In this document: piece by piece, positions 1-44,629 of the stretch
Layout: every line of letters begins with the position of its first letter
How positions within the stretch are numbered: the first letter of the stretch is position 1
Assembly (NCBI RefSeq): GCF_004010195.1
Contig: NC_057718.1
Span: forward strand, 83,712,624-83,776,623
Direction of reading: 5' to 3'
Source: Chiloscyllium plagiosum
Lineage: Eukaryota
Length of the DNA: 64,000 nt
Position numbers and translations under genes: made by a program
Notes under the pieces: model-generated
The model's input: only the letters and a program-made list of their open reading frames with translations
Database searches by the model: none
Told to the model about the DNA's origin: nothing

Positions 1-920
1 GTAACAACCATCAGGGAAGTGGTATTGAGCAAATTATTGGAGCTGCAGATTGACAAGTCCCAGGATCCCAACGTATTTTTATCCTAGGGTCTTGAAAGTA
101 GTGGCTAGTAATGTAATAAATGCATTGGTTAATTTTTTTCAAAATTTCCTGACTTCAGTTCCATTAGATTGGAAAATATAAAGTGTCATGCCTTTATTCA
201 GAAAGGAAAGGAGATAGAGCAATAAACTACAGGTCAGTTAACTTGGCAGGGCGAATGTGTTTGAAACTATTATTAAAGCACAACATTACTAAACCTCAAA
301 GTAATCAGGCAACATGGTTTTGTGAAAAAGAAATGGTGTCCAATTAATTTATTGGAGCTCTTCTGACGAAACAGCATGTGCTATGGATAAAGGGGACTAG
401 TTGATGTGTAGTACTTGGATTGCCAGAAGATCCATTTTAGCAGGAAAATTAAATATAGCATATTATCCAAATAGTGATAGGAGAGCTTTGAGATAGAGTA
501 ATCTACATTTCCTGCTATTTAAATGGCATTACTTTAATTTGCAGGTATAGCAAGTAATTATGAAAGCTAATTGAGTGCCACTGATTAAGACTAAGTAGAC
601 CAGTTATGTTTCAGTTATACATGACACTGGTACCACATCAGGAGTACCACGTAAATGCATTGATTACCTCATTGCAGCTAAGATGTCAGCCTGGTGGACA
701 TAGTTCAGCAAAGCTTACTCGAGCGATATGGGTGGGTTTTCGAATGAGGAATGGTTGTGGACTGGCAAGGTTTCTCTCTGCTGGAATTGAAGAGTAAGAG
801 GTGAATTATTTGAAACAAAGATCCTAAGGAGTCTTGACAGTACGCATGTGGAAAAAAAAATGTTTCCTCTGGTGGGACAGTTTAGAACTAAGAATATTCT
901 TTCAAATGAGGGGTTGCCCT
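1..920 (+). mobile_element. Old, degenerate CR1 LINE ORF2 (RT) and 3' fragments
   Basis: Decayed matches to the CR1 motifs seen intact at 28056-29444 (KSPGPD, W..ANV.PLF.KG, NYRPVSL, QHGF, LY.TLVRP); many stops. Confidence 0.7.
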
Positions 921-1157
921 TTTTAGACTGAGGCAAGAAAGGGGTTAATTGCAGGAAAAGCCGTGTTTTCATACAGACAGCAAACACCGAATGTAACAAG
1001 AAAGACAGGAGTTACTTCTGATAACGTGGAAGCAAAATCTTGAGGTCTCCTGAAGCAGAACCAATATTGGGATGAATGAATCTATTGAAACAACAATAAC
1101 TTGCAAGGTAGAACATTGGATTCTTATACAACACCAGACCAAAACTCCACATGGATC

Positions 1158-1360
1158 AAAAATGTGTTGCTGGAAAAGCGCAGCAGGTCAGGGAGCATCA
1201 AAGGAACAGGAGAATCGACGTTTCGGGAATAAGCCCTTCTTCAGGCTTTTGCCCGAAACGTCGATTCTCCTGTTCCTTTGATGCTCCCTGACCTGCTGCG
1301 CTTTTCCAGCAACACATTTTTAAGCTCTGATCTCCAGCATCTGCAGTCCTCACTTTCTCC
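1158..1360. mobile_element. Short Penelope-like element terminus with inverted duplication
   Basis: Same sequence as the 3' end of the PLE at 49373-51092; perfect 70-bp inverted repeat 1158-1227/1252-1321; flanking duplication ctccacaWggatcaaa (1145-1160, 1357-1372). Confidence 0.85.
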
Positions 1361-2492
1361 ACAAGGATCAAACCTTGGACACACCCAGAGACAGATTCCA
1401 TTATTAATTGGTAACAACCAAGTTGAGTTGGGAGGCTTAACTTGCTTACTTGAGGGGTCTATGTTGGTTGCTGCATGCAATAAAGTTGAAATCATTGTTT
1501 CAGTACTTGATTGGTTGAGAGATTTCTTAACAAGTTAGCCAAATTAAAAAGGTAGTCTATGGTGATTTACCTACAACAATACCAAAACCTTTTTAATTTT
1601 AGCAAAGTTGGAGCTTTCTCATTTGTTGGAAAACTAACTTCTCTCTCCAATGAGGTATTTTTCAACACACCAACCCTTTCCTATTCCTCACCTCACCTTA
1701 TTTTCCACTAGTTGCCCAATTGAAGTATTTCCCATCCTCAAATAAAGTGACCTTGTTATTTGCACAAAACTACACGCACTATGTGCCCCATTGTAAATTG
1801 AACTTCACCCCAGTTTCATGCTCCCATTCTCTCCCTTTCCTTCCTTCTTATATTATCAACATGATTGTCAAAACATGACAATGTTCCACAGAAAAAAATC
1901 AAAGTTACTTTACAAGGTTAAGTTTCAAATCAGTGGATTGCTCCATGTTAAAATATTATCAAAGACGTTAAGTATTTGTGATGCCAATGAGCTGGCTTTG
2001 ATAATATTTCTTTAATTTATTATCGAAGACATTTAGAACTAATCACTACATTAAAACATTCAAATACTAAAATCTTAATTTTATAATGGGTGGTTTTCAA
2101 CGGTTCAATTGAAGAAACAAAAACTCAGACAGAACCCACACTTCACAGAAATCTTAGTGACAAAAATAACTTGCGGCTTTTCTAACCAAAGAAACAAAAA
2201 ATACCTTTGCACTGCTGAAAGATGTAGCAAAGTCCAAAACGTATGATTCTTGCCAGGAACAAAATGTAGCTGCACAAAACCACTGCATGCCTGCTATCAA
2301 ACATGGGTGAATACTTCAAAAGAATACTGGTGGTTTCCTTTCTCACACTTCAAAAAAGGTTATTATACTATAAATACATTGAAAGGCTTTTATAAATATT
2401 GAACAAGAATTATCTGAAGTGTAAAATCAGTCCAGTTGTGATACTTGCATGTTACTGTTGTGGTTCTGTTCGCTGAGCTGGAAATTTTTGTT

Positions 2493-2532
2493 GCAAACGT
2501 TTCATCCCCTGTCTAGGTGACATCCTCAGTGC
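2493..2532 (-). ncRNA. Minimal type I hammerhead ribozyme motif (PLE-associated)
   Basis: Reverse complement reads GCA-CUGAGGA-U-GUCACCU-AGAC-AGGGGAU-GAAA-CGUU-UGC. Confidence 0.7.
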
Positions 2533-3407
2533 TTGGGAGCCTCCTGTGAAACGCTTGTGTGGTGTTTCCTCCAGCATTTATAGTGGCCTGTCCCTGCCGC
2601 TTCCGGTTGTCAGTTTCAGCTGTCCGCTGTAGTGGCCGGTATATTGGGTCCAGGTCGATGTGTTTGTTGATGGAGTTTGTGGATGAGTGCCATGCTTCTA
2701 GGAATTCCCTGGCTGTTCTTTGTTTGGCTTGCCCTATAATGGTAGTGTTGTCCCAGAAACACCACAGAAGCGCTTCACAGGAGGATCCCAAGCACTGAGG
2801 AAATATGCCTTTGGCAGGCAGAGTTTAGAGATGTACAGCACATAAACAGACCCTGGAGTCCAACTTGTCCATGCCGACCAGATATCCTAAATTAATCTAG
2901 TCACTGTGGTCCTGTTCGCTGAGCTGGAAGTTTTTGTCTAGGTGACATCCTCAGTGCTTGGGAGCCTCTTGTGAAGCGCTTCTGTGGTGTTTCCTCCAGC
3001 ATTTATAGTGGCCTGTCTCTGCCGCTTCCAGTTGTTAGTTTCAGCTGTCCGCTGTAGTGGCCGGTATATTGTGTCCAGGTCGATGTGTTTGTTGATGCCT
3101 AAGAAAAAGACAACGGAACGAGGACATGCCACAACCCAAAGGACTAGCCACACTACCATACATCAAGAACATCTCTGAAATGACAGCCAGACTACTGCGA
3201 CCACTAGGACTTATAACAGCACACAAACCAACAGCCACAATCAGACAACAACTCAATCCACAGACTCCATCAACAAACACATCGACCTGGACCCAATATA
3301 CCGGCCACTACAGCGGACAGCTGAAACTGACAACCGGAAGCGGCAGGGACAGGCCACTATAAATGCCAGAGGAAACATCACAGAAGCGCTTCACAGGAGG
3401 CTCCCAA

Positions 3408-3447
3408 GCACTGAGGATGTCACCTAGACAGGGGACGAAACGTTTGC
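3408..3447 (+). ncRNA. Minimal type I hammerhead ribozyme motif (PLE-associated)
   Basis: GCA-CUGAGGA-U-GUCACCU-AGAC-AGGGGAC-GAAA-CGUU-UGC: intact core, stem II with one A.G mismatch, palindromic ACGU stem III, GCA/UGC stem I. Confidence 0.75.
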
Positions 3448-3798
3448 AACAAAAATTTCCAGCTTGGCGAACAGAACAACAACAACGAGCACCTGAGCTA
3501 CAAATCTTCTCACAAACTTTGAACTTACATGTTACCTTTCAAATTCATTTTTTTTATTTTGGTGATCTTCTCTTTTAGATATTGATTACACAATATTGGC
3601 ACATGTTTCTTCAGTAACACTCAAAGGCTATCAGACAGGCATGTCGCATATTAAACTAAATTTAAAAAAAACTCCTCACTTTTGCTTTGAACTTTGATGG
3701 AAATGTCAAGATACAAAGTTCAGGTGTGGACACATTTGTAGCACAATAATCTGAAGATTATGGCCTCAAAGCTGGTTAACTGTGCTGTATTTAACAAG

Positions 3799-3926
3799 CC
3801 TGAAGGGCTTTTGCTCGAAACGTCCATTTTCCTGCTCCTTGGATGCCGCCTGACCTGCTGTGCGTTTCCAGCACCACTCTCTAATCTTGATCTGATCTCC
3901 AGCATCTGCAGTCCTCACTTTCGCCT
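3799..3926 (+). mobile_element. Penelope-like element 3' terminus (5'-truncated)
   Basis: gaagggcttttgctcgaaacgtc...catctgcagtcctcactttcgcc; approximate flanking duplication tgtgctRtattt. Confidence 0.8.
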
Positions 3927-4537
3927 AATTGTGCTATATTTGTCAAACATTAAGTGAATTAAAACATGGACTGTAATAAAAGACGTAGGGCTGAACTTTA
4001 CCACAAATCCACGCGGTGTCAATTCTGGCAAGCAAAGCAAGTTCTCATGCTGTGTTCCCTCGTTACCTGTGCACCACACTATGGCAGCCCACTTGTCATA
4101 TTCTCCCACTCACCATTGGAAGTAGGTGCAATTACTGTGAGACATTGGATACCTGGTTCCAGCACTATTTAAAATGCACCAAGTCAAGCGCTGGCAATTT
4201 GGAGATGCCCAGCACAGTTTGTAGTATTCACGCTAGACATGCCAAACAATTAGAAGTTGGCCCTCTTAGAGGTTCTGGTGGACACAGTGGCACGAAAGAG
4301 GGGTTCCACTTCCTGCAGGACCAGCAGAGGAAATGGCAACACCAGACTCTGCCAACCTGGTTGTCACCTAGTTCAAAGCAATGTTAGCAGTCCAGAAAGA
4401 CACCCAGCATTTACCATCTTGTCACGTTACACTCACTCCACTATTGTGCCCACCTCCCACAAAGGCTCAAGGTCACTCACGCCAATTGCCCCACACCACA
4501 AAGCGTTCATGACCTTTTTGCTGCCTACACTCAGTCT

Positions 4538-5124
4538 TGAGATATTAAAGGGTTAATTTGCTCTGCGGACCTGCAGGAAATTGGATGTCCCGAGGCTATG
4601 GTGGGATGCCTCTGACTTACGGGTAGATTGTAAGGAACTTACATTCCCATCCCTTACCATTCAGAGCCATTTGCATGGCCATTTCCTCGTTATTCAGAAT
4701 AAAAAAAAGAACTCAACAACCTATTCATAAATCACTAAGAACATTACAGTTGGAATTTTGACTACTCTGCAGTTAAAAAACGATTCACAACAAATTTGAC
4801 CATTAAGGGATGATTTACATTTTATTGTTTCTGGAAATGATGTGGTCATTGCCTTGTGTAACTGTGGCATGCAACTGTGGGGGGATGGCTGGGGGTTGTC
4901 TTCTGGACATTACTGACTCTAATGTAAAGATTTTGTGTCAAGGAAGGACAGTTTCCTTTGTTCAGAGAGATCCCTTGAAATGGCTTCGCAAGCATTGCAA
5001 AGTGTTAAGGGTTTCTCCAGAAAGCTTATACTGTACTGTGCTTAAATAAATTTTGCTGTTCAAAGTTGTGTGTTGCAGTTGCATCAAGTGCGTAAGAATT
5101 CCAACGAAAAAGATGATAATCTCA
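4538..5124. repeat. Solo-LTR-like dispersed repeat, copy 1
   Basis: TGAGAT...ATCTCA termini; colinear inverted homolog at 13825-14418. Confidence 0.55.
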
Positions 5125-8005
5125 CAACCTTGCCCCACTTGCACCTACTCTTGCTCAGCCCAGTCTACCCCAGCACCTTTAACCTTGAATGGTCTACATG
5201 CTGCCTACTCATTCATACAAAATACCTCACCACCATTTCCCCACATGGACCAACCCTAACAGCTGTGTTAGCCACATTCTCTTTACTTAATCCCTCCTTT
5301 GTCTCATTCCATAACAAAATAAACCACAATAAGGAGTCAGCCAGCACCGCTGACAGGTGTCTGATATTTGCTCTTCATCCATGAGAATCCTGGTACTGTC
5401 TGCTGAGGACAACAACCATTGATGCAGTGATGCCAAACATGCACGTCCCAGCAACCATGTAAGAAGCACTGCATTATTATGCTAGTCTACCCATTGTTCA
5501 TTACACGTTCTTTTGTTTTCTGATGGTACCAGTGGCATCTCTGTGGTCTTAGTGGCTAAGAGGCGAGCCCCACAACACATTTCTTCCTCCAGCTCTGAAG
5601 AAGCCATGTATCCTGCAGAGCATGCACAAGCAAAAGCAGACTCCTGAAGCCTCCACCAGGTCAGATATTGAAAAACCTGGCCAGTACTTTAGCTGGATTA
5701 GAGTTGGGAGCACCTCCCAGTGAGCATATCACAACTATGGTTGAGGAACAAACACCTCAGGTCACTGGCACTTGGAGGACTGCTGGAGACCAGGCATTTG
5801 CTTTGCCTCAGGCTCAACAGGATCCCATGGTGTCAGCCATTATGAACTTTATTCAAATGCAGAAGCAGACACAGGAGCAGCAGACAGGTTTGCTGAAGGC
5901 ACTAGGTAGGCTGACAATGGTTGCAAGACTGCACCAACAATATCTGCATCATGCTTGCCTCAAGCATGCAAGCATCTGGCTACCTCCATGCATACAAAGC
6001 ACTCAGTTTGCTGGATAAATGCATGGAGCTATGCTCCTCTACTCTCGCCACAGGTGCTCAGCATCAATAGTAAGGATGAAGGGAGTTAAGGGATCTTATT
6101 ATTCCAGGTGCCTCTTGCTCAAAAGATGACAGAAAAGGTGCCAGTAGGTTCCTAGCTGGAGGAGGTACCACATACAAGCACCCAGAAGTCTCCTTTCAAG
6201 CCACTTCAGAAGTGACTGAGCCTTTCACCTGCCCTAACAGTCCCATGTGGGACTTCAAGTTCAGAAAGGTATACCCGCCTCTCGGAAGTACACAAATCTG
6301 GGCTCTCTAACCATCAAATGCCCATGGTTCCTGCTCAAAACTCCAAGATTAATGGGTTCCACAACAAGGCAGGACTGCATCTAGATGTAGATGGAGGAAA
6401 TGGAAGACCATCTGAGGGCATACAGATGTCAAATTACATTTCATTCTAAATATATGTTCACTTTTCATCAAACGCTGTGCGAGCAAATGTTTAGTTACAA
6501 CTACAAGATGGAAGATACCAGATCCCGGCCATCTTAATGCTACACAAGGTATTAGGATGTGAAGGGAGAAGCTCTTACACCATATGCAGGTTACGAAAAC
6601 TTGGAAGATGCTTTGAACTTGGACAAGTATCCTTCCAGGCCGCAATATGTTGCTTGTGTATCACAAATATTACTGGCATCAATTCTTCGTGATGCATGTG
6701 GTCAAAGCTGCTTGAAGCCAGGATCTGCAATCCATAAGGTAATGCCCAAGGTTCACATACAGCATGTCGTGCCTGCAGGTGTCTTTTTCTTCTATATCAT
6801 AAGGGAATATAACTTTTTTATGAAGCCTTCAAAAGGCAAAAATAAAAGCTCACTCAGAACGAAATACATATGCCATGCACTTGGCATGCAGTAAATGGCA
6901 TTCATTTTTCAGTTCCATTGCACACTTGCTATTTGCATTAAGATGGAAGGAAGCATCAATCACATTTCATACAGCAAGTTTCAGGCTCAGTCATCTATCC
7001 TTGGTGAACCCCCAAATATACACATTGCCTTCTTGGTAGCCATTCCCATCAACCCCATTGATTTTGAACCTCCCCACATTTGTACCCAAACCAATAATCA
7101 AACTGGTCATCTGCTACTTTATTCCTCCAAGCCCCAGGCAGAGAGGCAATATACTAGTAGTCATACGTCGCCTCCTCCAAAGGCATGGTAGTGTTGACTG
7201 CTGATAACTCTCCTACTCACCCCCACCCCAACCCCTGGCATGCTTTACTTTCTGTTCCCCTTTTCCACATGGTTCGTTACCATCCTCACAACCGTAGTCC
7301 ACATGTATCCCAGTTGACTGACTCCAGTCCCCACAAATGAGTCCCCCAGCTTTCCTCCCACAGCAGTGGTCCAGATACTAATCCCCTTGACTTTTATTGA
7401 ACAGACAGTGATAACTTACCATGGCCCACCCCTTTGACCAAATGGGATGGACAGCTGCAATTAATGGCTGGCCAGACCCCGACTGATCTTTGTGCAGCTC
7501 CCAGAATTTCCTACAACTCCTCAAACTGGTGGTATGGGCCCAAAGGAACAACCTTGGCCCACTCCCCAGACACAACACCCCGACTCCAACTGGCCAAGCA
7601 GCCAACTGAATGTACCCAAGCCTCAACACTGATAATGAGAGGTTGTTCTTAATTTACTCTTCTGGGACCACTTGACGAAAGGATATCTACTTTGACTTCA
7701 CTGACGACTACTCTCCCAAAACTGAGAGACATGGCAACTTAAGTGCAACCATAAGGCGTAGGTATGAGATTGACATCATATGCGGCTACACAACAACACA
7801 TCTGTCTCCTTGACTGACAACTGCTTAGAACCATGACCAGCTATCTTGTTTTGTGTCTGCACTAAAAGGCAAGTCATAACATAGGTACTGAAACCATTCA
7901 AGCTCTGGAAAAAGGGGACAAATTGCAAAAAAGCATGGTAAGATAGAAATACTGTTAGCTTCCAAGCAGATGCAAAATAAGTGAACACTAAGCTGAATGA
8001 GGACA

Positions 8006-9081
8006 TAGTGGACAGCGAAGAGGGTTACCTCAGATTACAACAGGATCTTGACCAAATGGGCCAATGGGCTGAGAAGTGGTAGATGGAGTTTAATTCAGAT
8101 AAATGCGAGATCCTGCATTTTGGGAAAACAAATCTTAGCAGGACTTATACACTTAATGGTAAGTTCCCAGGGAGTATTGCTGAACAAAGATACCTTGGAG
8201 TGCAGGTTCATAGCTCCTTGAAAGTAGAGTCGCAGGTAGATAGGATAGTGAAGCTGGCGTTTGGTATGCTTTCCTTTATTAGTCAGAGTATTGAGTACAG
8301 GAGTTGGGAGGTCATGTTGCAGCTGTACCGGACATTGGTTAGGCCACTGTTGGAATATTGTGGGCAATTCTGGTCTCCTTCCTATCGGAAAGATGTTGTG
8401 AAACTTGAAAGGGTTCAGAAAAGATTTACAAGGATATTGCCAGGGTTGAAGGATTTGAGCTATAGGAAGAGGCTGAACAGGCTGTTTTCCCCGGCGCGTC
8501 GGAGGCTAAGGGGTGACCTTATAGAGGTTTACAAAATTATGAGGGGCATGGATATGGTAAATAGGCAAAGTCTCTTCCCTGGGGTCAGGGAGTCCAGAAC
8601 TAGACGGCATAGGTTTAGGATTATTGGTGCTGGAAGAGCACAGCAGTTCAGGCAGCATCCAAGGAGCAGCGAAATCGGGCTTTTGCCCGAAATGTCGATT
8701 TCGCTGCTCCTTGGATGCTGCCTGAACTGCTGTGCTCTTCCAGCACCAATAAACCAGAATCTGGTTTCCAGCATCTGCAGTCACTGTTTTTACCTCGGCA
8801 TAGGTTTAGGGTGAGGGGGAAAAGATATAAAAGAGACCTAAGGGGCAACTTTTTCACACAGAGGGTGGTACGTGTATGGAATGAACTGCCAGAGGAAGTG
8901 GTGGAGGCTGGTACAATTGCAACATTTAAAAGGCATTTGGATGGGTATATGAATAGGAAGGGTTTGGAGGGATATGGGCCGGGTGCTGGCAGATGGGACT
9001 ACATTTGGTTGGGATAGCTGATCGGCATGGATGGGTTGGACCGAACAGTCTGTTGCCATGCTGTACATCTCTATGACTCTA
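8006..9081 (+). mobile_element. CR1 LINE 3' fragment interrupted by a PLE hairpin
   Basis: ORF 8083-8814 is CR1 ORF2 C-terminus (MEFN.DKCE.LHFG, LYRTLVRPLLEYC.QFWSP, LRGDLIEVYKIM); ctctatgactct tail. Confidence 0.95.
8620..8795. mobile_element. Penelope-like terminus with inverted duplication, nested in CR1
   Basis: Perfect 57-bp inverted repeat 8621-8677/8696-8752; perfect 15-bp TSD cggcataggtttagg (8605-8619, 8796-8810). Confidence 0.9.
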
Positions 9082-10194
9082 CATCCTGGGAGGTGCAATC
9101 TATGAAATAAATACCTGACCTTACATGCAAAGTGTCTTTGCAGCAGCATTCAAAAATGGTGGGTGCATGTCTACGCACCCAGAGACGTTGGTGGCTGATG
9201 TCAAAGATGGAGGGCCGGAGAAGTTAGCAACAAATTGGATATGCAAGGCCACCACTCAAATTTGCATGCCAGGAACTGTCATGATTCAATGTCTATCTGA
9301 CACACGGGAGAATGGGAAGCTGTGTATAAATTAAACAAAATTCAATAATAATGAGATGTTAATACATGCTACTACATGCACTATGCCGCTCATCACTCAC
9401 TGTTGAGAAGCACACCTCGTCATTCTCAACATGAAGAATTCCAAACTGGCCATCTTCTAAGACTTTCCGAACATTCTCACTAATACCATGTCAGTGATGA
9501 GGAATATTCTACCATTTTTGTCATTGACACTTCAAAAGAATAAACTTACCCACAACTTGAAAGCCACTTCTGAATCCCTCTCTCACTCTCAGACAGTACA
9601 TTCTAAATCCGAACTATGTACTGCCTGAAGGTTAAAAGCAGCACAGCATGTGCACGATTCCCAGATCCCCACAAGTTTTGGACCCATACATAAAAAATTA
9701 GGGCTGCAATTCATCTGGTTTTGTTGAGGTACAGTTGCCTGTTTAAAAGTTACTAGACAAATTAAATCAGTCTCAAGCACACTTCAAACAAGCAGTCAGC
9801 AGTAAAAAGTTGAAAGCATAGTTCCATCCACTCCAGCCAACCTTGAAGTATTGAATGACTAGGACCTGCATTCAATATTACATGCTAATCAAGGTAGGCT
9901 GATTCTAATTATCCTTCTCTTACTGCTTACCTTTATTGAGGTGAGCAATTCAATACAGACCAAGAATCAAAAGGCTTTTAAAAATGGTTACGTGCAGTAA
10001 CTTGAAAATATGATTTGATTTATTAAAAAGTAATTAAAAAAAAAGTCAGATGATAGAAAACTTGACAAATAAAACAAAAGAGCATTTGGTCCTTTGCATC
10101 TGTGCCAATTGACAAAGAACCAGCTGGCATAATATACCTCTCTCCACAAAGTCTACATTCCTGCAAGTCACAGTTCAAGTTGCAACATTTAAAT

Positions 10195-10960
10195 ATTTGG
10201 GAAAGCAAATCTTAGCAAGACTTATACAGTTAATGGTAAGGTCTTAGGGAGTGTTGCTGAACAAAGAGACCTTGGAGTGCAGGTTATTAATTCCTTGAAA
10301 GTGGAGTTGCAGGATAGGATAGTGAAGGTGGTGTTTGGTATGCTTGCCTTTATTGGTCAGAGTATTGAGTCCAGGAGTTGGGAGGTCATGTTGCGGCTGT
10401 ACAGGACATTGGTTAGGCCACTTTTGGAATATTGCGTGCAGTTCTGGTCTCCTTCCTTATTGGAAGGATGTTGTGAAACTTGAAAGGGTTCAGAAAAAAA
10501 TTACAAAGATGTTGCCAGGGTAGGAGGAATTGAGCTATAGGGAGAGGATGAATAGGTTGGGGCTGTTTTCCCCAGAGCACCAGAGGCCGAGGAGTGACCT
10601 TATAGAGGTTATTAAAATCATGAAGGGCATGGATAGGATAAGGTAGGTCTTTACCCTGGGGTGGGAGAGTACACAACTAGAGGGAATAGGTTTAGGTGAG
10701 AGGGGAAAGATATAAAAGAGACTTAAGGGGAAACTTTTTCATACAGAGGGTGGTACGTGTATGAAATGAGCTGCCAGAGGAAATGGTGGAGGCTCGTACA
10801 ATTGCAACATTTAAAAAGGCATCTGGATGGGTATATGAAAAGGAAGAGTTTGGAGGGATGTGGGCCGGGTGCTGGCAGGTGGGACTAGATTGGGTTGGGA
10901 TATCTGGTTGGCATGGACGAGTTGGACCAAAGGGTCTGTTTCTGTGCTATACATCTGTAT
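10195..10960 (+). mobile_element. CR1 LINE 3' fragment
   Basis: Near-identical to 8120-9081; frameshifted ORF2 C-terminus. Confidence 0.95.
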
Positions 10961-17345: not shown

Positions 17346-18241
17346 GTGAGGAAATGTTTGCCATAAAGTTAATTGGAAATATTATGATCATCTGAAAAAC
17401 ATGCAATTAGGAATTTAAAAATTAAGCCTAAGAGTTAATATTTAACAGTTATGACTTTGGATCAATTATAACTGATCATTTGTGGACACCCTTTTGACAA
17501 CTCTAGCCCTCAACTCTTCTCAGGTCCACAACCTCTACAATTAAAGACTGTTTTGTACAGCCAAAATGACAGCGCTTGTGTTATGCAGGCCTAGTGCCCC
17601 ATGAGCCATGAGGCCTGCGTTCAAGTATCATCTGCTACATAGGTCCATGCGAACACCTCCAAACAGATTGACTGGAAAGCACTGTACAAAGTAAATAAAG
17701 AAAACAACTTTAAAAAAAAAGGTGTTTTAATAACATGAAAAGCAAAACCCCTCCTAACTTGCTGTTCCATGCAGACGTCTTCCCTCAATCCTCATATTAG
17801 TATTCAAAATTCTTAACTAATTTCCTAGTTTAACAATATTGCCCCTATCCCAAATCTCTTACCTTCATCAATACTTCCCCTCGTACAAATTATGGCTTAA
17901 AGCCAATTTTAACTATCACACGCAATACACAAGTTTTCAGAAACAGACGTAGGCTACATTTTCATTTCATTTAAAAACTGCAATTTACAAATTAAAAAGT
18001 GCAACTAATGGAATCACGTGGGACCACCCCTGGCTGGACCCAACAGGCAGCATCCAAACTCGAGAGTAAAAGCAAAATATTGTGGACATTGGAAAAACAC
18101 AAAATTCAGGAGTTACCTACTAGGTCTGCAGCATTTTCTATAATCCCTCCAAACTAAGAGTGCATTTAGGAGCTACTCCCAGGTTGTTAGCGCCCTTCAG
18201 GAGAGGAATATTACAGACCAATTCCAAGTAAATTTACTCAC

Positions 18242-18309
18242 TTGACTAAAACTGCTCCACCAATTACAATTCCAGCAATTGATAGTGGCAATATATATTT
18301 GCTCATCAT
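18242..18309 (-). CDS. RDH13: Retinol dehydrogenase 13, first coding exon
   Basis: Translates MMSKYILPLSIAGIVIGGAVLV+AA, followed by a gtgagt donor; matches the human RDH13 N-terminus as recalled (MSRYLLPLSALGTVAGAAVLLK); CpG-enriched region directly upstream. Confidence 0.9.
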
Positions 18310-42799: not shown

Positions 42800-43724
42800 T
42801 CGGTCCAAAGGATCGTTCGCTCAGTAAAACCACACTCAATGAAACTATGAACGTGAATAAACTTGCTGCAATTGCAATCAAGAATGAACTCTGTTTCCCA
42901 GAATGCACGGAACACGGCAGCGTAAACAGGGCAATCTTTTCTCCTGTTCCTTTTCCGTGTTGGGTTGAGAAAGAAAATGCGGCCCCCTGCCTATCCGGCC
43001 GCATGCGCAGACGTTTGAAGCTCTCAAGTTTGAAGAACACACGGGATATTTTTGTTATATTTATCGTTAGAAGGGGTGACTTGTTTCTCCTTTTTTAAAA
43101 TTATTCTCGGCCAGTATTTGACGCCTCGGGGGTTGGCTCTCAATATGTAATCGTGGGCGTTCACACCAGTGAAAAGGGAGTTTCAAAGGGGGGGGGGGGG
43201 GGTTGTGGAAGAGAGACAAATCGAAATTTGTGTGTGTATATAGGTCAGCTGGCGACTGGCTCCCCCCGCCTCGATCCAGGGCGACCGTTGAATTTTCGCC
43301 TCGAGATCGCGCCGTCTTACTCTTGCGGCCCCCACCCCCCTCGTCTCGAGCCTGAGCCGTTGGTTGGCTGCCGTGTCCAGCGTCTCCCCGTTTGCTTTGC
43401 AGCCGAATGGTGTCCCCGGCGTGCGAGAGAGGTGAACGCGAGCACCAGCGACGACAGCAAAAGGGGCTGGTGGGGGTAACAAAAAAGGGAAAGGGGAACG
43501 ATCACTTTGAAACTTTTGGGGAGGGAGGAGGGGTGGTGGGGGGGGGCTGTGCGGATAAGAAGCTGTCGGCGAACGCTTTAGAAGTCGGACAGGGAGCAAA
43601 AGGCGGAGGAAGAGAATAATTTCAAGATCGGTCCTAGGAGTGGCGATCGAAGAAGAAAACGTCCAATCTTCTTACTGACTGGAAAAAGGCTGCGGGTGCG
43701 CGTCCGGGGGCCGGAGGCTGTACC
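42800..43724 (+). promoter_or_regulatory. CpG-island promoter and 5'UTR of the SOS gene
   Basis: Dense CpG; NRF1-like ccgcatgcgca at 42999-43009; G-tracts at 43188-43202 and about 43517-43546; Kozak-like accATG at 43722-43727. Confidence 0.8.
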
Positions 43725-43811
43725 ATGCAGCAGCCACAACAACAGTACGATTTCTTCAGTGAGGACAATGCACCCAAATGGCGGGGTCTACTCGTCGCTG
43801 CTCTACGGAAG
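43725..43811 (+). CDS. SOS2: Son of sevenless homolog (Ras GEF), first coding exon; SOS2-leaning, paralog not certain
   Basis: [29 protein letters not shown] then AAG|gtaaaa donor, 87 nt; compare human SOS2 [29 protein letters not shown] and SOS1 [29 protein letters not shown] (both recalled). Family assignment is very secure, paralog less so. Confidence 0.85.
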
Positions 43812-44629
43812 GTAAAAGTTATTTTGAAGCTCCAGTATGTGTTTATATTTGAATTATGAATTTGCGAGATTTATTGTAATTTTTTTTCCAAGAAATTCGA
43901 GGCTTGACGTATCGAACCATGGACCTGATGTTTTTGATATTTTAGAGGTGCAGTGAAGGATGCTAAAATGCCGTTTTACAGGCATTTTATATTAAATCAG
44001 TTAAATATTTCAGTAATAGGAACGGAGAACTTGTGAAAGGAACATGTTTCCTCTACCGTTGTCAACTGGTTTGACAAATAAGTTTGTTAATTTGGTGAAT
44101 TTGACTTTTTTGAATCGTATTTTGCTGATTATGATATGACATTCTGTTCGGAAGCAACTTTTATTGTGTGCATACGATTTTTTGCTATTGGTTATCGCAG
44201 TTATTAGCTTTCGACATATTAAACCATAATTAAGTGAAGTTTTACCTGATATGTTTTGATCTTCTTCCCCCTTGTGGTTACTGTGTTGCAAATGACTTTG
44301 GGGTCGGGGTATTTTGGAATCAGTTGCAACATGGTGCATGTTCATCATGTGGTTTTTGCTTATGGGGTTTTGGACAGTGAACAGAATGAAAGTGAATGCG
44401 AGACTGAGATTTCAAGTTTCAAGCCTGTGTGCTGCTTTTAGTGAAAGGTTCGATTGAAGGCAAATTGTGGACTTTGTGACGTAAAAGGTAGCCTGATACC
44501 TGGAAGGGATTATTGGGCAAGTGAGATAGAATTGTCAACAATTTTGGTCAAGTAAATCTCGATTTTGAAAAAAAGAATGGAAATGACCAAGTATCTTCAG
44601 GATAAGCTTGATTCTTTTTTTTAATTTAA

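Follow-up and report, generated by a model that had tools for sequence, protein, structure and literature searches.

A minimal type I hammerhead motif of a young Penelope/Poseidon-type family, probably inert within a fold-back insertion in an RDH13-like intron of Chiloscyllium plagiosum

At 3408–3447 on the plus strand lies what is very likely the minimal type I hammerhead carried by a young, high-copy family of Penelope/Poseidon type; this copy is likely inert, sitting in a fold-back insertion in intron 1 of an RDH13-like gene. Positions refer to the window, i.e., the whole 64,000-nucleotide stretch of Chiloscyllium plagiosum DNA that was analyzed.

Two complete motifs in one composite insertion

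The headline motif reads GCA-CTGAGGA-T-GTCACCT-AGAC-AGGGGAC-GAAA-CGTT-TGC in window letters and features every core nucleotide, with a single extra U following A9. Stem II spans seven positions—six pairs and one A-G mismatch—and carries the loop AGAC; the ACGU palindrome is loopless, and stem I consists of 3 bp, with GCA as the 5′ strand and UGC as the 3′ strand. U17 corresponds to 3444, and scission is predicted between 3444 and 3445, after GUU. Copy 2, which reads from 2532 to 2493 on the minus strand, is one base apart: C11.1 is replaced by U, so that a G-U pair is kept (closing pair G10.1-U11.1), and scission is predicted between 2496 and 2495. A strict motif scan of both strands of the window yields these two motifs and none in 100 first-order Markov simulations of the window. 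With a looser pattern, three motifs are found vs 0.01 expected per window; the third, at 1244–1217, matches the loose pattern only and belongs to another repeat. A preliminary description, made from the letters, had proposed an intact minimal hammerhead on the plus strand and a near-intact copy on the minus strand. Letters, core, and stems are confirmed for the former, with the A-G mismatch to be added to its stem II, and the latter passes the strict scan. The covariance-model search that it had recommended turned out negative: Rfam models gave no hammerhead family in window 1–10000 at E<=5, and only hairpin-type chance matches below gathering scores appeared. The fold of the monomer is no better than that of its shuffles (z 0.06). 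Both the unremarkable monomer fold and the missing Rfam match are expected because the motif has no helix III.

Both complete motifs lie inside one 1.07-kb composite insertion of a truncated Penelope/Poseidon-type retroelement, 2456–3523, the parts of which are listed in Table 1. The insertion is bounded by a target-site duplication of 11–13 bp, with a rough chance probability of about 1e-3 when offsets of ±3 nt are allowed. Its two arms are formed by 2456–2684 (229 nt) and 3256–3484, which are 96% complementary, and the forward 3′ end outreaches the inverted arm by a 39-nt tail at 3485–3523. The ORF stop TAG at 3425–3427 overlaps stem II and loop 2 of the headline motif. Family copies that match the ORF remnant run on into RT upstream and into GIY-YIG downstream. 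The captured piece in the middle of the insertion may be a LINE-like 3′ end, and its presence suggests template switching. A similar piece occurs near family copies in two other stretches, L009 and L017.

Table 1. Features of the composite insertion and its host gene (window coordinates)
Feature	Position	Strand	Remarks
Left target-site duplication	2445–2455	.	11 bp; 13 bp when started at 2443
Inverted, 5′-truncated copy of the element 3′ end (ORF tail and pLTR)	2456–2756	-	94–97% identity to family copies over ~300 nt
Minimal hammerhead copy 2	2493–2532	-	sense to RDH13-like pre-mRNA; strict scan
46-nt pLTR fragment	2756–2801	+	stops just after CUGAGGA; half motif without stem II or GAAACGU
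Captured 77-nt piece of unrelated repeat	2826–2902	.	75–84% inverted match to 8997–9073 and 10883–10959
Second inverted pLTR copy	2904–3097	-	~21-nt deletion takes hammerhead 3′ half; half motif 2957–2935
ORF remnant, RT thumb to endonuclease linker	3094–3255	+	no cysteine; ~97% identity to family copies
Element 3′ end	3251–3523	+	~270-nt deletion before it, GIY-YIG core gone; mapped on L038 and L040
Minimal type I hammerhead (headline)	3408–3447	+	antisense to RDH13-like gene; strict scan
Right target-site duplication	3525–3535	.	matches left one with 1 mismatch
Coding exon 1, RDH13-like gene	18242–18309	-	hydrophobic; phase fits exon 2; spliced contigs

The insertion sits within the first intron (~24 kb) of an RDH13-like gene. 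Exon 2 of this gene lies ~5.8 kb before the window start and encodes the motif TGANTGIG; its closest relatives, at 83–95% identity, are named RDH13 or RDH13-like and stem from cartilaginous fishes. A spliced exon 1–2 junction, joining 18242 straight to exon 2, is present in contigs from two of four runs. The minus strand is hence the sense strand of the gene, as had been suggested: the headline copy is antisense, and copy 2 alone is sense. The RDH13-like gene escaped motif scans of the window and came to light through natural relatives taken from this genome; its locus is absent among the 18 scored places of a genome-wide short-chain dehydrogenase search.

The repeat family and selection on its fold

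The 40 best-scored copies of the surrounding repeat are 96–98% identical across 245 nt. The exact 34-nt core (C or T at 11.1) occurs in 3,765 genomic copies and, with up to two mismatches, in 16,559, with no match for the reversed-pattern control in either case. A pattern of the same geometry, with the core fixed and stem II mostly free, gives 25,954 genome matches vs 33 in the control. In family copies, the RT features the motifs DKG, PISG, and YVDD (RVT_1, E 2.9e-6, 27.6 bits vs a Pfam cut-off of 29.6) and is followed by a GIY-YIG domain (Pfam E 0.017, also below the cut-off), whose two tyrosine motifs enclose a CxxC and which has a pair of His further downstream. This order—RT and then a C-terminal GIY-YIG of CCHH type—is seen in L029/L038, L041, and L028 and is deleted in the window copy; three of six translated family pieces have no Pfam match. 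The linker between RT and endonuclease is free of cysteine in L038, L026, and L028 and, hence, contains no CX2-5CxxC zinc finger, a trait that marks Penelope/Poseidon rather than Neptune or Nematis in the classification given in PMC8557442. The element is assigned to the Penelope/Poseidon type from domain order, motifs, and linker, and the earlier placement of the hammerhead in a terminal repeat of this type agrees with its position in the pLTR of copies that carry RT and then GIY-YIG.

The best named homologs of the RT (L038:2958–3803) are found in carpet sharks, at 84–86% identity, with flatworms next. Outside sharks, the top relatives are parasitic flatworms, namely Trichobilharzia (56% identity) and Sparganum/Spirometra (~45–50%); this likeness could reflect plain clade membership or horizontal transfer. 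The pLTR architecture of the family includes direct and inverted arrangements with 5′ truncation. In L036 and L037, ORF sequence is bracketed by direct pLTRs on one strand, and in L037 the next ORF starts directly after the hammerhead. Among the first 100 exact matches on one contig (C1), 17 pairs of close neighbours (<=3.5 kb) occur, 15 of them inverted and two on the same strand. The family stretches examined contain no full-length intact element and no single intact ORF of full length.

The fold was selected in the lineages that spread, as judged by the covariation of stems I and II across sister subfamilies, and inserted copies then decay, mainly at CpG sites. In 32 aligned copies, hand-picked to spread over subfamilies, 88.4% of stem cells pair and 21 cells are changed on both sides. 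The observed stem covariation score is reached by none of 500 shuffles, a control that ignores the relatedness of copies; measures counting pairs or pair types are not significant (145 and 192 of 500 shuffles, respectively). Pair 3 of stem I, which lies outside the search pattern, is C-G in 10, G-C in nine, and U-A in seven of the 32 copies, and pair 3 of stem II appears as U-G, C-G, or U-A. Covariation and core conservation, the absence of which the preliminary description had listed among its refuting conditions, are both found across sister subfamilies, the former under a shuffle control blind to relatedness.

Freeing five core positions of the search pattern raises the 3,765 matches to 3,960 only; freeing five non-core positions raises them to 8,692, by letting in a sister subfamily. 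Four of the five core positions are first or second codon positions, so that this count is confounded with coding constraint. The 3′ half could be followed unselected by fixing the 5′ half plus a single base of stem I and nothing else, which gives 36,019 matches (21 in the control). In the first 100 of these, counted by hand, the post-stop positions A13, A14, A15.1, and U16.1 are changed in seven of 400 cells, and the motif is intact in 40 rows. Changes, mostly transitions, affect the CpG positions G12, C15.2, and G16.2 in 22, 17, and 29 of these 100 rows, respectively, and loop and stem positions vary between subfamilies. The end of the ORF is encoded by the 5′ half of the core and reads T-[ED]-D-V-[TA]-stop in most aligned copies. 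In most aligned copies of the sister subfamilies (L045–L100), the stop codon lies partly in stem II and partly in loop 2. Of 39 distinct motifs, 30 have C and nine have U at H17; at pair 4 of stem II, 21 have A-U and 16 have either A-G or G-G. The headline subfamily departs from most sisters twice, by U17 and by its A-G mismatch.

Activity of the copies and competing readings

In an intact tandem element, two motifs on the same strand would, following the literature, pair via their ACGU palindromes with their stems I cross-paired; each partner of the dimer would have to supply ACGU. The resulting double hammerhead would cut after position 17 and free unit-length RNA. Family copies end around 3520–3527 in window coordinates, well beyond the scissile bond, and their junction is intact; the tail of the forward 3′ end stops ~79 nt after that bond. 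Since inserted copies keep this uncut junction, the template for insertion would have been uncut or else re-ligated or circular. The intact junction would fit a circle model and a vestigial ribozyme alike.

At the locus, no cis dimer is predicted because the complete copies lie on opposite strands and the same-strand neighbours of both are half motifs without GAAACGUU. A second complete enzyme strand of the family is absent from either strand of intron 1. Folding of the whole insertion predicts pairing to the opposite arm with P 0.97 for the plus-strand and 1.00 for the minus-strand copy and no stem II, in an equilibrium calculation that ignores co-transcriptional order. A read-through transcript of the locus would fold its arms into a ~230-bp duplex, with the motif hidden. 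The double hammerhead is geometrically possible for the headline sequence but is not the predicted minimum (−12.7 kcal/mol vs −19.3 for an alternative co-fold, modelled for the bare 40-mer with no tertiary terms). Dimeric cleavage, which the preliminary description had cited as established for PLEs, is not supported for these two copies, which oppose each other in strand and are both predicted to be locked in the fold-back duplex. The copies at the locus are probably inert. A heterodimer of copy 2 with the motif at 1244–1217, which shares strand and ACGU, was discarded for its mismatched stem I strands, and two 8-nt substrate-like sites on the minus strand, at 17950 and 17778, were set aside as chance occurrences 15 kb off. 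A polyA single-cell raw-read run contains 702 family reads, mainly from other copies, and leaves the unique flanks of the locus uncovered; its read starts and ends show no pile-up, which counts neither way since this type of library is unable to show a cut. A second raw-read run contains no family reads.

The preliminary description had also raised an effect on the host pre-mRNA. It is highly improbable that copy 2, being sense and complete in its core, modulates the RDH13-like gene by cutting its pre-mRNA, be it during transcription or by trans dimerization with another family transcript. Amniotes do have domesticated intronic hammerheads, as reported in PMC6155905, and family transcripts exist in the run with 702 reads, mostly of other copies. 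The insertion is, however, young and repeat-like, unlike those conserved canonical cases, and the missing cis partner, the antisense arm—transcribed first and predicted to sequester the motif—and the G-U closing pair, which weakens stem II of copy 2 (−3.0 vs −4.3 kcal/mol), all speak against it. Spliced mRNA exists as well, although it is compatible with partial cleavage. With the headline copy antisense in addition, an effect on the host transcript is not supported. Even less credible is a motif that merely accompanies a conserved protein tail and its stop-codon context with no selection on RNA. It could draw on the coding role of the 5′ half of the core, which supplies the last ORF residues, and on the unremarkable monomer fold, but is largely refuted by post-stop core positions that stay conserved when unselected, by stems that covary on both sides, and by subfamily differences at free positions that alter the encoded residues.

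The remaining alternative concerns the family rather than the locus: the hammerhead of the youngest subfamily may be weakened or vestigial, by U17 and the A-G mismatch, and the family may have spread without needing cleavage. This is possible though on the whole unlikely. C17 and A-U at pair 4 of stem II prevail among the distinct motifs, GUC is cut faster than GUU, and the junction is uncut in inserted copies; against this, of the positions tested, only free ones distinguish the two youngest subfamilies, and stem I is retained, as G-C, in the headline lineage. The literature likewise points both ways. Low activity was found even for dimers in the experiments described in PMC4209133, and Naiad PLEs proliferate without hammerheads, which may parasitize PLEs according to the discussion in PMC8557442, but GUU is counted among the active NUH sites in PMC3138052. 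The preferred reading remains a genuine minimal hammerhead of an expanding family with an inert copy at this locus.

A wider proposal is rather doubtful and is offered tentatively: that a shark Poseidon-type ribozyme under RNA-level selection overlaps the ORF stop and that fold-back insertion seals each copy in duplex. If true, such sealing would explain how the genome tolerates more than 150,000 hammerhead cores, many of them intronic, and the subfamilies, graded from C17 and a fully paired stem II at one end to U17 and a mismatch at the other, would form a natural series on the need for cleavage or RNA circularization in Penelope retrotransposition. The individual copy is of little weight, being one among 3,765 identical cores and probably silent. 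The weight of the family lies in pattern-independent covariation support for RNA-level selection of PLE minimal hammerheads in a cartilaginous-fish lineage, and young subfamilies with differing cleavage triplets offer material for asking about the role of the ribozyme in Penelope transposition.

Within the RDH13-like pre-mRNA, the arms 2456–2684 and 3256–3484 would pair over ~230 bp, and the resulting duplex could plausibly be a target of A-to-I editing.

Relation to known systems and further features of the window

Minimal hammerheads were described in the pLTRs of metazoan Penelope-like elements (PLEs), including Xena, Poseidon, and Neptune of fish (Cervera & de la Pena 2014, PMC4209133), so that the architecture has been on record for Poseidon and related PLEs of fish since 2014. 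Alone, a minimal motif is reported as inactive, and dimers are reported as cleaving weakly in vitro via palindrome pairing, with a proposed role in releasing, and perhaps circularizing, unit-length RNA from tandem copies (PMC4209133, PMC6765202). The motif of the window resembles the form set out in PMC4209133 in being of type I with a 7-position helix II, an extra nucleotide between 9 and 10.1, G10.1-C11.1 (G-U in copy 2), and a palindromic 15.2–16.2 with no loop 3. The arrangement is similar as well—mostly solo motifs or opposite-strand pairs ~100–700 bp apart, in thousands per genome. It differs from that form, as far as the source describes it, by the internal A-G mismatch in stem II and by U at H17; stem I has 3 bp here vs 4–5 bp in Schistosoma. 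The count of 25,954 compares with ~4,000 in coelacanth and ~9,000 in Xenopus, obtained there by another search method (PMC4209133).

The element features the traits given for C-terminal endonuclease PLEs by Craig et al. (2021, PMC8557442), namely the RT, GIY-YIG with CCHH, DKG, and the lack of a linker finger, together with 5′ truncation and, next to the 5′ end, a truncated copy in inverted orientation. The tail at one end only measures 39 nt here and 30–40 nt in those PLEs. Unlike the insertions covered in that source, the window insertion is doubled, internally deleted, and equipped with a captured foreign fragment. With the dimer-cleaving PLE hammerheads of Lunse, Weinberg & Breaker, as summarized in PMC6765202, it shares a stem III that is short, palindromic, and dependent on a second copy, whereas a complete same-strand second copy is lacking at the locus. 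Vertebrate PLE-derived type I hammerheads also form non-LTR retrozymes, for which the one chondrichthyan sampled was positive in the account of bioRxiv 10.64898/2026.07.22.740005. Retrozymes as defined there are head-to-tail tandem arrays, in contrast to the inverted composite with ORF remnants seen in the window; near the locus, there is no tandem array and only one complete family motif per strand. Compared with the RECK-type domesticated hammerhead, the fold is minimal and not canonical, and the copy is 96–98% identical to dispersed repeats. The search of open literature found no paper on the shark family, which may already be listed in repeat databases (Repbase, Dfam), subscription journals, or supplements.

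A second repeat family in the window consists of short fold-backs with a smaller minimal hammerhead featuring a 4-bp stem II. One copy lies at 1158–1321 (motif 1244–1217, minus strand), with related copies at 3805–3925 and 8611–8794. The core pattern with a 4-bp stem II has 127,312 matches in the genome vs 34 in the control. In addition, the plus strand at 43726–43812, in a GC-rich region of about 42900–43800, encodes the start of a protein in a first exon that ends at a GT donor; we take it to resemble the N-terminus of Son of sevenless (SOS1/SOS2).
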